This document shows positions 4,505-9,522 of a stretch of DNA of 64,000 nt, in pieces. The stretch comes from a virus. The stretch lies in IMG/VR virus record IMGVR_UViG_3300027714_000001, positions 42,180-106,179 of that record; one strand, given 5' to 3'. The position numbers and the translations under genes were made by a program. The notes under the pieces were generated by a model. It was not told the DNA's origin and ran no database searches. It was given only the letters and a program-made list of their open reading frames with translations. Position 1 is the first letter of the stretch, and every line of letters begins with the position of its first letter.

Positions 4505-4790
4505 CTGGAATCGAGAAAGGAAACGAAAAATAACCGAGTCACTATAAGTGATCCCGATTTATTGCCGTAGGATAGGTAGTACGTAACCGAAGCAATACGA
4601 CCCTGGAGTGTCAAGCTACAAACACTGGGCGTTATACCTGAAAAAACAAACCAAGAGCATGGCCGTATCAGTTCGAAACAACTGGGTCTTCGTGAAAGCC
4701 GAAGCAATTTAATAAAAGACTTTGAAGATAGATTGCTTCTATCCTAAAATACTTGTACAGACAGGCATATCTACTCAAAGTCTTTTCTTA
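4505..4790 (+). ncRNA. candidate structured ncRNA(s)
   Basis: Promoter 4470-4498, no + ORF, several hairpins; 12-bp stem AAAAGACTTTGA/TCAAAGTCTTTT (4714-4786). Confidence 0.5.
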
Positions 4791-4794
4791 AATT

Positions 4795-4870
4795 GGGGAC
4801 ATAGTGAAACTGGAGATCACACGATTCTTCTAAATTCGTATTCGGGGTTCGAGTCCTCGTGTCCCTACCA
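4795..4870 (+). tRNA. tRNA-Arg(UCU)
   Basis: Loop CTTCTAA, T-loop TTCGAGT, CCA. Confidence 0.9.
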
Positions 4871-4871
4871 A

Positions 4872-4962
4872 GCATGTGTAGACCAGTAAGGATCTGGGGC
4901 GGCCTGTAAAGTCGTCGTTGCCGAGAGGAGCCGTGTAGGATCGTTACCTACCACATGTACCA
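4872..4962 (+). tRNA. tRNA-Tyr(GUA)
   Basis: Loop CTGTAAA, long variable region, T-loop ATCGTTA, CCA. Confidence 0.85.
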
Positions 4963-5142
4963 CATTACTACTAGTATCGGAGAATGCTATGAGAGACAAA
5001 AATAGTTGGATTGAAGGCACAGATGTTTAATAGTGAAACTCAGGGATTTATTAAAGTAGGAGTGTGGGATGGTGAATACCATAGAATCTCACAAGACGAC
5101 TGGCCAGGTGTTTAATTCAAAGGAACTAGTATAACAAATTTA

Positions 5143-5219
5143 GGGTGAGAAGCTTAAGTGGCATAAGCGACTGGCTGTTAACCAGAAGATAGAAGGTTCG
5201 AGTCCTTCCTCTCCCGCCA
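5143..5219 (+). tRNA. tRNA-Asn(GUU)
   Basis: Loop CTGTTAA, G73, CCA. Confidence 0.9.
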
Positions 5220-5225
5220 CATTAT

Positions 5226-5300
5226 AAGGACGAGCATAAGGTATGCGTCGGGTCTCCAAAATCTTGAAAAGACAGAGTTCGATTCTCTGCGTCTTTGCCA
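5226..5300 (+). tRNA. tRNA-Trp(CCA)
   Basis: Loop CTCCAAA, T-arm CAGAG-TTCGATT-CTCTG, G73, CCA. Confidence 0.85.
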
Positions 5301-5338
5301 AATCCTCTACCTTAGGATAGCACATTAGATTGTGTACT

Positions 5339-5360
5339 AGCCCACTTCGGTGGGCTTTTT
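5339..5360 (+). terminator. rho-independent terminator
   Basis: AGCCCAC-TTCG-GTGGGCT followed by a T-run. Confidence 0.85.
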
Positions 5361-5497
5361 ATCCTTCTAAAATAACTTATAAATGTTCTTGCTTAAACGC
5401 TAATTGTTTGCTATAATATGTTTCTGGAATCAAGAAAGGCTTTAGAAAATTTTGAACTTTATAAATGTTAACTCTCTCATCTTAGGAAAATAAATTA

Positions 5498-5818
5498 ATG
5501 AAGAAAATATTATTAGCAGTAACATTAGCCACGATGTTAGTATCGTGTGCAGACAACAAAGTATTACCCCATTATGGAGAAGTAAAAACTTATGGACTAG
5601 TTGATGCAAGTGCAGTAAAACTTCCTTGTGTTAATTATGAAGTAGCTATTGGAAACGTAATCTGGTCAGCTATTTTTGCCCCGACAGTAGCAGTCCCTAT
5701 ATACATGGTAGGCTTTAGTATTATGGAACCGACAAGTGTTGACGAGCTTTGTATGATAAAGACATTTGATGAAACCGAAGTCGGCAACTTGTTTAGAGAA
5801 TACGAAAAAACTTTGTAA
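5498..5818 (+). CDS. putative lipoprotein
   Basis: Signal peptide with lipobox LVSC and a further hydrophobic segment. Confidence 0.7.
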   Translation: MKKILLAVTLATMLVSCADNKVLPHYGEVKTYGLVDASAVKLPCVNYEVAIGNVIWSAIFAPTVAVPIYMVGFSIMEPTSVDELCMIKTFDETEVGNLFREYEKTL

Positions 5819-6337: not shown

Positions 6338-6450
6338 AATTTCTAATGTAAGAATCACTGGTAGACAATTCTGCCGTTGACTATGCTTCTTCAGGGGGTG
6401 TCTTCTCTAGTAACAACTTAGGTTGGAGAGTGATTCTTACATTAGAAATT
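6338..6450 (+). ncRNA. multi-way-junction RNA closed by a perfect 22-bp helix
   Basis: AATTTCTAATGTAAGAATCACT / AGTGATTCTTACATTAGAAATT; downstream of promoter 6241-6269. Confidence 0.65.
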
Positions 6451-6544
6451 AAAATAACGCAGCAGACCTCTTGTAGGATTGATGAAGCGGAAATAAATTT
6501 TTAAAAGACTTGCATAACGGCTTCAAATCCGGTATAATAGTTTT

Positions 6545-7210
6545 AGAAATTGAGAAAAGAAAAAGAAACGAGTAGCGTGCGAAAGTGATGTTTTTTCTTT
6601 TCTGAAAGTTAGGGTAACGCTCGTGCACTGAGTGAAGGTTCAACTCCTTCTAGTAAATTTCTATTATGCAGGGTACAGTAACCTGACGATGAAAAATACT
6701 GAAACCTTTTAATATCCTAGTAATAAAGTAAAAAGATTCTAGGTAATCCTTCTGGCGATTCAAGTCTTAGATAGGCGGTGAGAAGTGTATTATACAGATG
6801 CGTCCGCGACCAACCAACTAACACAAAGAATGATACGTAGCCATTACGTTAGACTGCAAACCGTTAAGGGCAGGCCAAGCTCCTAAGAAAACAATCTTGG
6901 AAGGCTTATACATATATTGCTTAGCACTTTGCTCCCTAAGTCTAGTGTGGAATCTATACAGAGGCAAATGCCTCTTTCAGGTCGAAATACCTAGACACAC
7001 GAAATTGCTAGTCAGCGCAATTAAAGATTAACTGATATACAAAGGTGTGACTCCTTTGTCCTTATTAAAGCGTATCTTGAAAGAGGAATAAGAACCTTAC
7101 GCTGTGATAGCATCCTGCGGTAGTACGCTTTAATAAGGAAAGTTGTTCAACGGCAGCTCAAAGCGGCATAAAAGATTAATGCAAGGTAAATATTGTTTTC
7201 CTTGCGCTTT
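6545..7210 (+). ncRNA. candidate large structured ncRNA region
   Basis: Promoter 6510-6538, no + ORF, T-arm GAAGG-TTCAACT-CCTTC (6634-6650), many hairpins, perfect 16-bp stem 7059-7074/7124-7139. Confidence 0.55.
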
Positions 7211-7237
7211 CCTTAACTACTCAACAAAGGAACAAAA

Positions 7238-7591
7238 ATGGAATACACAATAAAGTGTGATACGCTAGACGTAAAAATGGTAGTTAAAGTTTTAAATAAG
7301 GAAAAGTTTGAAGCAGCCATGACAAAGACAAATAAGTTTTGGAGTGGAAGCGAAGGAAGAGCTCTGTGTTACGGGGGACATGTACTGGCAGGACTTAAAA
7401 TGTTTGCTCAAGAATGTCTTCAGCAAATCGCCTTTAATAACTTTCTTAATGGAGATTACTTAGAATATAAGTTTGATTGGAGCAAAGAAAACCAAGGTAT
7501 TGAAGGCTTTTATAATTTCGCTACAGCAGGACTGAAAGTACTGGAAATTAATTCTTGGTTTGTCTGTACTGATGAAATAGAAATAAAGTAA
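7238..7591 (+). CDS. DUF2528-like protein
   Basis: NKFWSG and EGF motifs; AAGGA RBS. Confidence 0.6.
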   Translation: MEYTIKCDTLDVKMVVKVLNKEKFEAAMTKTNKFWSGSEGRALCYGGHVLAGLKMFAQECLQQIAFNNFLNGDYLEYKFDWSKENQGIEGFYNFATAGLKVLEINSWFVCTDEIEIK

Positions 7592-7634
7592 AAAACTTCT
7601 TGACTAAATACTAGAATCCCCGTATAATAGATTC

Positions 7635-7930
7635 TAGAAAGTTAAGAAAAGAGATTAATACGAAGCAAGATTTACTCACTTGTTTTTATAAAGGGCGGTT
7701 TTATAGTATTGTAAACGTCTAAAGGAAGAAAGGGTACAGAGTTCTTCACTATAGTTTTAATTTCTTTTCTTAATTTTCTATGCACACTAGCTTCGGCCAC
7801 ATAGTGTAAGAAAGTTAAAACCCTTTCTGTCCAATAATCAACGTAAGTCCTGACCCAGGCATTGTAGGGAGAGAGGTGCAATTCCTACCATATCCACGAG
7901 TAACGGTCAGTTTACTGAACTAACTCTAGG
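7635..7930 (+). ncRNA. structured leader RNA upstream of GOLLD
   Basis: Promoter 7600-7628; the first 24 nt pair with 7757-7780 (2 G-U); internal hairpins. Confidence 0.55.
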
Positions 7931-7940
7931 GATAAGGTAG

Positions 7941-8777
7941 ATTAAAGCAGGGCGGTTTAGCGTCCTTAAAATAACCCACTGAAAGGTGGAAAAGGTAACT
8001 TGTCAGGTTGCCGCTGTGTAGGCTCCGGTTTACAATAGTTTATCTAGACAAGCACAAGTTTCATTCCGTAAGAATGTCTTTGAGTCTAAAATCAGAGATA
8101 GCATTAAAAGGAACGAGCGTAGGTACTCCCGACAGGCGAGTATAGCGGCTAATAACCAAAAAGCCAAAATTAGACATGGGGACATATTTAAACCTGCAAT
8201 CCACTCTAGTACGAAATATGCAAAAACTAATGTGTAGTTGTTTCAGTCCGAGTAGTCATATAAGGGCAGGCAGCAGTAACAAAGAATTGTTTGTAAATAG
8301 ACAATCCTTAAAATACGGTGGAGTAGCGGGAACGCGAAAGACAATGTGGTGTGGAATATTTTGTAAGTCAAAAGCTTACGAACTCCTGACGGAACACATC
8401 GCAGACAACTAAATAACGCTATTGGTTAGCATTTGACTCTTAATCAAACTATCGGGTTCAATTCCCCATTAATCAAAAGTTTCCGTCGGTACGTTATCGA
8501 AAGATTGCTAATCCCTGACAATAATGAATCAGGGCATATAAAGGTCGAAAGCCTGCATATGTTTACAACGTAGATAAATTTAGTCTCTTAGCGGAGAGTA
8601 ACAGCCCTAAAGGTTGGAAGGAATCGAAATGTAGAGTAGATACGTATGACAGTCTTATATGCTTACAAGACTTTAAAGACAAGCGCAATCGGTGGGATAC
8701 TAGGGAGACCTAGTGGATACGCAGCTAACTCATATGGCTCGCAAAAGACCTGCTACTAGAAGCCTTAATCTCAGGCT
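7941..8777 (+). ncRNA. GOLLD-like giant ncRNA
   Basis: ~840 nt with no credible ORF, among tRNAs. GOLLD-type blocks recognised from memory: TTAAAATAACCCACTGAAAGGTGG, GACGGAAC/GTTTCCGTC pairing, GGATACTAGG-GAGA-CCTAGTGGATA, and 3' hairpin AGCCT-TAATCTC-AGGCT. Confidence 0.75.
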
Positions 8778-8905
8778 GATATAAATTAACTCTTTAGAGA
8801 GTATTTATGGGGACACTTTAGCTTTACCTAAACGCGAATAAGGTATAAATTATAGTAAAGAAGTTGAAGACTAATGCATTAGTTGGATGGACTAAAATAT
8901 TATAA

Positions 8906-9139
8906 TTGCTAGAGTCCCACCATAAGTATTTTAAGAGCAAAAAAAAATTGTCAGCTACCCCTAGTTGGTCTGAGAGTACTGCAATAGGAGAGTTTTACTT
9001 TAATTGTCCTATAGGTTATCATGTAGATCATATAGTGCATTTACAAGGGCTGATAGTTTGTGGCTTGCATGTGTTAGATAACTTACAGTATCTAACAGAA
9101 GAAGAAAATTTAACAAAAAGTAACGCCTTTATCGTATAG
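8906..9139 (+). pseudogene. HNH endonuclease remnant
   Basis: YHVDHIVHLQGLIVCGLHVLDNLQYLTEEENLTKSN; no good start; 3' end overlaps tRNA-Thr. Confidence 0.75.
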
Positions 9140-9202
9140 TCCGGTCAATTACGCTGGTTTTGTAATCCAGTTACGTAGGTTCGAATCCTGCTAGAGGCAC
9201 CA
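9125..9202 (+). tRNA. tRNA-Thr(UGU)
   Basis: Acceptor GCCTTTA/TAGAGGC, loop TTTGTAA, CCA. Confidence 0.85.
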
Positions 9203-9522
9203 AATTACATTTGACGTAATGAAACACTAAGTTCTTGCTAAAATACTAGTGTTCCACCGTAACAAGTAGTCTCCTCAACAGGATGAAAGCGACAACGGAA
9301 CTAAGCAAACAAATACATATAAGGTTCGATCCCTTTTCTCTGGTGAGTATATGTATGAACAATAGAATTACTGTTCATCTTACATGTAGAATGGTTCATA
9401 GCCAGCTATTTTGTACAATGAATAACATACCGTAGAGCAAGTCGCACTTGCTAAATATCTAAAGATATGATTTAACAGGTTTCTTTAGACATTACCTCAA
9501 ATTTAATTTAACAGGAAAGACA

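Follow-up and report, generated by a model that had tools for sequence, protein, structure and literature searches.

A candidate block of separately promoted RNA genes around GOLLD in the tRNA region of a T5-like marine phage

Phage transfer RNA (tRNA) clusters harbour stable RNAs whose function is not known, such as species 1 and 2 of T4 (rnaC and rnaD) and the RNAs of the T5 tRNA region. Among large RNAs, GOLLD (RF02032) is established as lying close to tRNA genes of phages and as carrying, in some cases, a tRNA in the linker. Self-assembly into a 14-mer nanocage is known for GOLLD env-38 only, and the cages have been speculated to enclose other macromolecules (bioRxiv 10.1101/2024.12.08.627333). 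Uncatalogued structured RNAs are increasingly found in phage tRNA islands, and the function of GOLLD is still not known. Here we describe such an island at positions 4505 to 9500 of a 64,000-nucleotide (nt) stretch of viral DNA, called the window below, which corresponds to positions 42180-106179 of the 106,179-base pair (bp) IMG/VR record IMGVR_UViG_3300027714_000001. It contains a GOLLD RNA and several stretches that lack a credible open reading frame (ORF), designated units A to E (Table 1). We read the island, with a probability of about 0.6, as an early-transcribed block of RNA genes in the tRNA region of a T5-like phage, in which promoter cassettes drive GOLLD and further non-coding RNAs. 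The products, in order, would be a tRNA operon with a long leader, unit B, unit C, unit D, and GOLLD.

Promoter cassettes, GOLLD and folded leaders

The record carries direct terminal repeats and T5-like structural genes. Identity of its tail tube protein to the counterparts in Vibrio T5-like phages does not exceed 42%, which places this uncultured phage as a remote member of the T5-like group. All DNA runs and metatranscriptomes that contain the stretch carry a marine label, and a marine gammaproteobacterium is the probable host. The tRNA region occupies the first 17 kb of the window, where default ARAGORN reports 20 tRNA genes; the window total is 22 when tRNA-Tyr and tRNA-Trp, found at relaxed settings, are included.

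Seven T5-type sigma-70 promoter cassettes were found between 4470 and 9520. The five strong promoters named by the first-pass annotation (4470, 5825, 6241, 6510, and 7600) all belong to one cassette family. The sequences agree with T5-type sigma-70 early promoters in having hexamers 17 nt apart and a conserved downstream region. In blastn, T5-like phages of Salmonella and E. coli have promoters 80% identical to the cassette. In a consensus scan, the promoters at 4470, 5825, and 7600 matched at 11 to 12 of 12 positions. Those at 6241 and 6510 were missed because their −35 hexamer is TTGCAT, and they are clear copies of the cassette, with the −35, the 17-nt spacing, TATAAT, and the conserved leader AGTTTTAGAAATTGAGAAAAG. 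The two are closely related to each other, 6508-6560 being 92.5% identical to 6239-6291, and P4470 is paralogous to cassettes at 5412, 12086, 13886, and others. Within the window the cassette motif is present in 16 copies, where 3.5 would be expected, and none of 100 shuffles reached this number.

Nine cassettes genome-wide have a start codon 26-34 nt past TATAAT. Six are ORF-less, and all six lie in the tRNA region (TATAAT at 4493, 5848, 6264, 6533, 7623, and 14421). Between the last of these, a type-1 cassette in 14390-14589, and tRNA-Asp lie about 160 nt without an ORF, with a fold z-score of −0.8 and no leader hairpin. A second cassette subtype, with the leader (A)TGTTTCTGGAATCAAGAAAGG past TATAAT, recurs through the early region.

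To search for relatives, the 117-amino acid (aa) protein encoded in the island was used as a query against metagenomes. It recovered L042, a marine contig of 3,595 nt that is diverged and syntenic, and that serves as the one comparator for all comparative results below. The order common to the window and L042 is the 3' part of unit B, a promoter, unit C, unit D, the DUF2528 gene encoding the 117-aa protein, a promoter, GOLLD, and tRNA-Thr. Promoter placement is fluid between the two phages. P6510 has no equivalent in L042, where no promoter separates the C and D homologues and where the promoter layout predicts one transcript of about 1 kb for both, and L042 has an additional promoter between its leader-helix module and GOLLD.

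The assignment of 7941-8777 to GOLLD was borne out. The Rfam model matched 8344-8777 with 175.2 bits against a gathering threshold of 150, over its full length (positions 1-416 of 416, E = 1e-48). Upstream of this 3' domain, the 5' domain (7945-8343) aligns with the regions preceding the Rfam matches in L042 and in two cultured Vibrio T5-like phages, D260 and D239. Thus a match above threshold over the 3' domain, a 5' domain giving a total near 800 nt, and a tRNA-rich phage location are all present. The GOLLD of L042 scored 158 bits. Those of D260 (L040, 6450-7302) and D239 (L041, 6680-7545) scored 177 and 176 bits, and are annotated in GenBank as strings of hypothetical proteins of 30-60 aa. 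The GOLLD linker holds an acceptor-less tRNA-like insert, at 8410-8476 in the window with the anticodon CUU (Lys). The corresponding insert of L042 (2959-3016) reads CUC (Glu) by its loop and passes the Rfam tRNA threshold with 37 bits.

The GOLLD transcript is predicted to start near 7634, where the leader derived from the promoter pairs with its own complement downstream. The same arrangement was found in units C and D. The helices are 13-24 bp long, with duplex z-scores of −4.7 for unit C, −3.7 for unit D, and −9.5 for GOLLD, and each unit carries its own complement. No leader hairpin was detected in the nine coding cassettes, in units A and B, or in the ORF-less 14421 unit. Leader helices are likewise present in L042 (z −6.7 and −9.1). 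The GOLLD leader helix is kept in the two L042 copies through one-sided and two-sided changes, one of these copies being a separate promoter unit, and the helix is thus kept in three copies of differing sequence. Folding of this kind would hide the Shine-Dalgarno (SD)-like leader from ribosomes. It would also protect the 5' end against decay of the RNase E type or, at 22-24 bp, could act as an RNase III processing site. The phage would then be reusing one strong sigma-70 cassette, with the leader open before a start codon for proteins, and with the cassette put before non-coding sequence here. An architectural rule by which the leader of the same cassette is either open or folded away could help to find RNA genes in other T5-like phages.

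Conserved elements in units B, C, and D

Comparison with L042 gave nucleotide identities of 96.9% for tRNA-Thr, 93% for the promoters, 90.7% for the 3' third of unit B (6128-6240), 89.8% and 79% for the GOLLD 3' and 5' domains, and 76% each for the unit C core and the 3' domain of unit D. The gene of the 117-aa protein is 65.7% identical in nucleotides and 53% in amino acids. The protein gene lying between the non-coding pieces is thus less conserved than they are. In the conserved blocks, none of the six frames is better conserved than the others and indel lengths are not divisible by three, which rules out a hidden coding sequence.

Unit C showed a conserved fold beyond its leader hairpin. 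All 29 consensus pairs of its core (6351-6437) are paired in both phages, with 6 double compensatory changes against 0-2 when the alignment was slid. The closing stem differs in sequence between the phages, L042 having a distinct 7-bp stem where the window has the 22-bp repeat. One of the enclosed hairpins is invariant (GGUAGA-CRAU-UCUGCC), another varies, and the third shows compensation in its inner pairs. A covariance model of the core, R1, scored 130 bits on the plus strand and 28 on the minus strand. Together with the invariant G.U pairs of unit C and the D 3' domain, these scores place both structures on the plus-strand RNA. The product of unit C would be an RNA of about 90 nt, a four-way junction closed by a long stem.

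In the 3' domain of unit D, all 59 pairs are paired in both phages, and 10 double compensatory changes were counted against 0-2 in slid alignments, with none of 500 shuffles reaching this. In its last helix, UUCCUU (7209-7214) pairs with the sequence AAGGAA (7227-7232), the SD of the DUF2528 gene, which ends 5 nt before the ATG. The same pairing, predicted to sequester the SD of the downstream gene, is kept in L042. Both strands of this helix are invariant, so the SD helix itself is without covariation support. A possible competitor for the pairing, AAGGAAAG at 7135-7142, was seen by eye only.

The D 3' domain therefore looks like a structured cis-acting 5' untranslated region (UTR) of the DUF2528 gene rather than a free RNA, as the predicted structure suggests. 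Most likely it would gate translation of the gene by sequestering the SD. The lambda gene ea10 is annotated as DUF2528 (PMC10695390), and the presence of an Ea10-family gene behind an elaborate conserved leader hints at regulated expression. From the sequences, the long helix of the domain seems to be a platform for swappable inserts. At L042:1335-1400, corresponding to 7076-7122 of the window, this hairpin carries a tRNA-like insert with a TTCGATT T-loop (19.3 bits), and the insert of the window is unrelated to it. The 5' part of unit D aligns with L042 only at 6867-6902, and most of 6607-7000 could not be aligned.

Conservation of unit B is limited to its 3' third, and its 5' part (5860-6127) has no counterpart in L042. 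Within the conserved third, 45 of 45 nt (6165-6209) are identical in L042 and have little predicted structure; this invariant, largely unpaired element would be the conserved part of the unit B product. No exact copy of it was found in viral contigs or genome contigs. When the phage genome was searched for an antisense target, the longest complementary run was 11 nt, no better than in shuffles. A sigma-54 promoter or a second sigma-70 promoter inside the element was considered and rejected, as no −35 or −24/−12 match was seen by eye. The element may be a single-stranded functional RNA site, or a DNA site upstream of P6241.

Metatranscriptome contigs from four studies lie on the locus. Run X8 yielded an 868-nt GOLLD contig that is 100% identical, with a word depth of 87.6, while flanking 100%-identical phage contigs have depths of 4-6; DNA carry-over is therefore not easily the explanation for the GOLLD contig. 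Contigs over unit B came from four runs of four studies, those over GOLLD from four runs, and those over unit D from two runs, the X8 contig spanning 6531-7032. The ~93% variant in run X16 has 10 differences over about 400 nt of unit B, compared with 6-8% in coding pieces.

Some details of these contigs were not counted as evidence. Cover in X8 is near zero over 5006-5673 and 7344-7677, and the unit D contig stops at 7032. In X16, the leader of the 6264 cassette is linked directly, at 6293, to the conserved block at 6865 on a contig of depth 63, which is as deep as the GOLLD contig of this variant. The joint may reflect an arrangement without unit C and the 5' part of unit D; only 28 nt lie on one side of it, so it could be a repeat artefact. 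Contig ends at 6290-6292 were rejected as RNA ends, as they coincide with the repeated cassette and represent assembly breaks.

Searches for further relatives were made with several queries. The tail tube protein gave no match in IMG/VR. The terminase gave fragments at 46-93% identity, five of them at 76%, and none of the five records searched extends to the RNA island. Loci found with the methyltransferase were non-syntenic and without tRNAs, and a search with the promoter-cassette pattern returned unrelated promoters only. Patterns for a 26-mer of unit B, for unit D, and for the GOLLD lineage had 0 matches in viral contigs and genome contigs, and the DUF2528 protein matched only prophage homologues (~45% identity) in viral contigs. 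When the island and L042 were compared by blastn with 50,697 phage records, the matches were tRNAs, GOLLD, and promoters only, and no similarity to units B, C, or D was found. Units A to E and L042 were also searched with the covariance models of 4227 Rfam families at E values up to 10. Apart from GOLLD and tRNAs, nothing meaningful was found; the families covered included ROOL, HEARO, OLE, raiA, IMES, Y-RNA-like RNAs, and riboswitches.

The first-pass annotation had recognised nothing in 4505-4710, 5860-6210, 6545-7050, and 9205-9495, and the Rfam search agrees with it. Its further proposal, a suite of new RNA classes, survives in part. The sequence comparison supports at least three further ORF-less, promoter-driven elements as being under selection: the unit C core and the D 3' domain, with compensatory changes, and the conserved 3' part of unit B. 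The proposal gained no such support for 4505-4710, for 9205-9495, or for most of 5860-6127 and 6607-7000. For about half of the sequence it had listed as unfamiliar, the absence of an ORF is the whole of the support.

Table 1. Coordinates of features in the island and of second-subtype promoter cassettes (positions in the window)
Feature	Start	End	Strand	Description
Promoter P4470	4470	4498	+	TTGACA, 17 nt, TGnTATAAT; type-2 cassette; 12/12 consensus
Unit A	4505	4794	+	290-nt ORF-less leader ahead of tRNA-Arg; fold z −0.77
tRNA operon	4795	5300	+	Arg(TCT) 4795-4870, Tyr(GTA) 4872-4962, micro-ORF 5023-5115, Asn(GTT) 5143-5219, Trp(CCA) 5226-5300
Intrinsic terminator	5339	5356	+	7-bp stem, 5 GC pairs, then T-run; closes tRNA operon
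Sixth promoter	~5389	5417	+	drives real lipoprotein gene 5498-5818
Lipoprotein-like gene	5498	5818	+	106 aa; signal peptide and Cys; coding score 0.249
Promoter P5825	5825	5853	+	type-1 T5-like cassette; 11/12
Unit B	5860	6240	+	ORF-less transcript (predicted) behind P5825; fold z −0.33
Unit B invariant element	6165	6209	+	45/45 nt identical in L042
Promoter P6241	6241	6269	+	TTGCAT, 17 nt, TATAAT; type-1; kept in L042
Unit C leader hairpin	6282	6337	+	leader pairs with downstream complement; −18.8 kcal/mol, z −4.7, 0/300 shuffles
Unit C body	6338	6450	+	22-bp perfect closing stem around four-way junction, core 6351-6437
Promoter P6510	6510	6538	+	duplicate of P6241 cassette; not at corresponding place in L042
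Unit D 5' part	6545	7003	+	leader hairpin ~6550-6606 (z −3.7), T-arm-like hairpin 6634-6650, variable body, conserved block 6867-6902
Unit D 3' domain	7004	7232	+	conserved seven-helix structure (predicted)
DUF2528 gene	7238	7591	+	117 aa; Pfam PF10800 80.8 bits; phrog_646; coding score 0.256
Promoter P7600 (GOLLD transcript)	7600	7628	+	11/12; 92.8% identity to L042
GOLLD 5' leader module	7634	7785	+	24-bp leader/complement helix around ~100 variable nt; duplex −26.2 kcal/mol, z −9.5
GOLLD RNA proper	7945	8777	+	5' domain ~7945-8343, 3' domain 8344-8777; ~833 nt in total
HNH endonuclease remnant	8906	9139	+	77 aa; phrog_26577 at 7e-12, phrog_1035; coding score 0.097
tRNA-Thr(TGT)	9125	9202	+	96.9% identity to L042
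Unit E	9203	9522	+	ORF-less, between tRNA-Thr and lipoprotein gene; fold z −2.84, 0/100 shuffles
Second-subtype cassettes				4489-4531, 5399-5439, 3732-3770, 12086-12121, 13886-13933, 14231-14290, 19893-19923, 29754-29786

The tRNA operon, protein genes, and remaining stretches

Coding potential was assessed with a codon-usage score trained on the 39 long ORFs of the phage, whose mean is 0.26 ± 0.07 per codon. The lipoprotein-like gene and the DUF2528 gene scored 0.249 and 0.256 per codon. Other ORFs of at least 30 aa in 4450-9520 scored about 0 or below, except the micro-ORF at 5011/5023-5115 (30-34 aa). Read from 5023, this micro-ORF encodes 30 aa between tRNA-Tyr and tRNA-Asn, with the SD GAAGG 5 nt upstream and the top coding score of the island, 0.34. 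The claim that the sequence is ORF-less thus holds for the named stretches by codon score, and not for 4505-9500 as a whole, which also contains two protein genes, an HNH remnant, and five tRNA genes.

Default ARAGORN reports tRNA-Arg and tRNA-Asn behind P4470. A relaxed threshold added tRNA-Tyr and tRNA-Trp (4872-4962 and 5226-5300), both with the full cloverleaf of RF00005 and with CCA, and all tRNAs of the operon have an encoded CCA end. The variable arm of tRNA-Tyr is long; this tRNA reaches 24.4 bits in Rfam, under the RF00005 threshold of 29, and tRNA-Trp likewise escapes detection at that threshold. With the Tyr and Trp genes found, P4470 therefore heads a four-tRNA operon. The terminator that closes it is the only good one in the island. 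Unit A, in which neither a leader hairpin nor an Rfam match was found, is 290 nt long, and 4505-4710 is most simply the leader of this operon.

Downstream, the 106-aa lipoprotein-like ORF had no Pfam or PHROG match. The HNH remnant lies between GOLLD and tRNA-Thr, overlaps tRNA-Thr by 15 nt, and is absent from L042. Unit E gave no Rfam or tRNA match; L042 stops short of it, and hence it has no comparator. Until further relatives come to light, units A and E and the 5' parts of units B and D are best regarded as leaders or as rapidly evolving spacers.

The T-loop arms noted earlier at 6634-6650 and about 9321-9335 exist as hairpins, and neither is convincing as part of a tRNA. No cloverleaf beyond the T-arm was found at 6593-6658 or at 9321-9335. 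At the former, ARAGORN draws an odd 66-nt structure whose 'anticodon' has 2 nt; at the latter it gives nothing, and there is no Rfam match. Elsewhere in the tRNA array, a tRNA at 15337-15411 has the anticodon CTA; ARAGORN labels it 'Pyl', and it is a possible amber suppressor.

Alternative readings and comparison with known systems

Several observations weigh against an RNA-gene block. L042 is a single comparator; the covariation is therefore that of two sequences, and the structures were derived from the same two. In the C core, 8 of 500 shuffles did as well in the control. The B element, which lies 56-100 nt ahead of the following promoter, shows no covariation against L042 and weak predicted structure, and could work as a DNA site. 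Dense hairpins had been claimed throughout. Folding is indeed stronger than in shuffles at 6275-6500 (z −4.3), 7634-7950 (z −4.2), and 9203-9522 (z −2.8), and is no better than in shuffles at 4505-4794 (z −0.8), 5860-6240 (z −0.3), and 6545-7235 (z −1.4). The RNA-library data are assembled contigs, which give no strand, ends, or reliable ranking, and DNA carry-over could account for the low-depth pieces. With no terminators between them, the 'units' may be parts of longer read-through transcripts.

The strongest alternative is that the ORF-less stretches besides GOLLD and the tRNAs have no function, being leaders, spacers, and debris in a tRNA region that recombines readily and in which promoter cassettes are duplicated and shuffled. 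The promoters would then matter only for the downstream tRNAs and genes. Unit A, the 5' parts of units B and D, and unit E, for which a counterpart or comparator is lacking, and the ordinary folding energies of 4505-4794, 5860-6240, and 6545-7235 would fit this well. So would P6510 as a recent duplicate of P6241, the differing number and placement of promoters in the two phages, and the HNH remnant as a sign of ongoing turnover. It does not predict that the B 3' part, the C core, and the D 3' domain are more conserved than the adjacent protein gene, that 16 double compensatory changes keep 88 predicted pairs in both phages, or that leader helices are confined to ORF-less units and recur in L042. 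We consider it unlikely, though it deserves more weight than the other alternatives.

The conserved pieces could also act as DNA, the B element as a protein-binding site for control of P6241 or as an origin-like site, and the repeat of unit C as a cruciform. An element that is invariant yet unstructured and sits just upstream of P6241, and a perfect 22-bp inverted repeat in unit C of the window, are what such a role would produce. However, the 22-bp repeat is not kept, and the different 7-bp stem of L042 is the pattern expected of RNA pairing. In addition, on the opposite strand the invariant G.U pairs would turn into A.C mismatches, and RNA-library contigs cover unit B in four studies. A DNA role for these pieces together is quite improbable; for the B element alone it may hold.

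Units B, C, and D might instead be dedicated partners or cargo of the GOLLD nanocage, as the first-pass annotation had suggested. Their synteny with GOLLD in both phages that have B-D and the published speculation on cage contents (bioRxiv 10.1101/2024.12.08.627333) are in its favour. The suggestion fared badly against D260 and D239, which carry GOLLD in their tRNA regions without unit C: model R1 found no match in either phage, and blastn found no similarity to B, C, or D. Units B-D are therefore not general companions of GOLLD. The B element has no extended complementarity to the rest of the phage genome, and co-location is expected anyway in a region of tRNAs and non-coding RNAs. We consider this reading very improbable, and the other idea of that annotation, anti-defence RNAs, found no support in the analysis.

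The weakest of these readings is that the stretches encode small proteins missed by ORF calling. In its favour, the micro-ORF at 5023-5115 combines a good SD with a high coding score, and a 61-aa frame (6166-6351) spans the B element. Against it, the coding scores of all remaining frames lie close to 0 or below it, and the 6166 frame reads across a promoter and is shortened to 26 codons in L042. The six-frame-equal conservation and non-triplet indels also stand against it. A retron RNA was rejected in the absence of a nearby reverse transcriptase, and ToxI-like repeats and CRISPR-like arrays in the absence of repeats besides the promoters.

The preferred reading thus remains a block of RNA genes behind early promoters. 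A bolder version of it is that units B and C, and perhaps the ~1-kb C+D RNA of L042, form a new class of early trans-acting RNAs, which would either soak up a host protein (RNA-binding or defence) as a decoy or sponge or cooperate with GOLLD as a second large RNA, with the leader helix as a general rule for stable-RNA genes of T5-like phages. We offer this only tentatively, as a doubtful extension. The value of the locus is bounded by the fact that units B-D come from two uncultured marine phages only.

When compared with described systems, the island shares with T4 rnaC/rnaD and the T5 tRNA-region RNAs the interleaving of non-coding, apparently stable RNAs with phage tRNAs. It differs in that each RNA here has its own strong promoter and is not cut from a tRNA precursor, and in that B-D have so far been seen in two phage genomes only. 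The promoters share with T5 early promoters of the PN25 and P26 type the −35 hexamer, the 17-nt spacer, TATAAT, and an initial transcribed region that is conserved and rich in purines, whereas here six copies stand without an ORF and three of these have a leader-folding complement. In common with GOLLD elsewhere are the 3' domain over the full model, the 5' domain, the tRNA surroundings, and the tRNA-like linker insert. What differs here is a T5-type promoter dedicated to GOLLD and an extension of 310 nt at the 5' end that starts with a 24-bp helix, which gives a predicted primary transcript of about 1.14 kb. In its predicted structure, the D 3' domain resembles SD-sequestering riboregulators (riboswitch platforms, RNA thermometers, and autoregulatory leaders) in placing an anti-SD/SD helix under a conserved multi-helix domain; it matches no Rfam cis-regulator. 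Compared with the phage RNA islands already known, this one is richer and has separate promoters, but it is of the same kind and not a new system. What is new here is the T5-like setting with a promoter for each RNA, the leader helix, two RNA motifs with first covariation support, and one invariant element.

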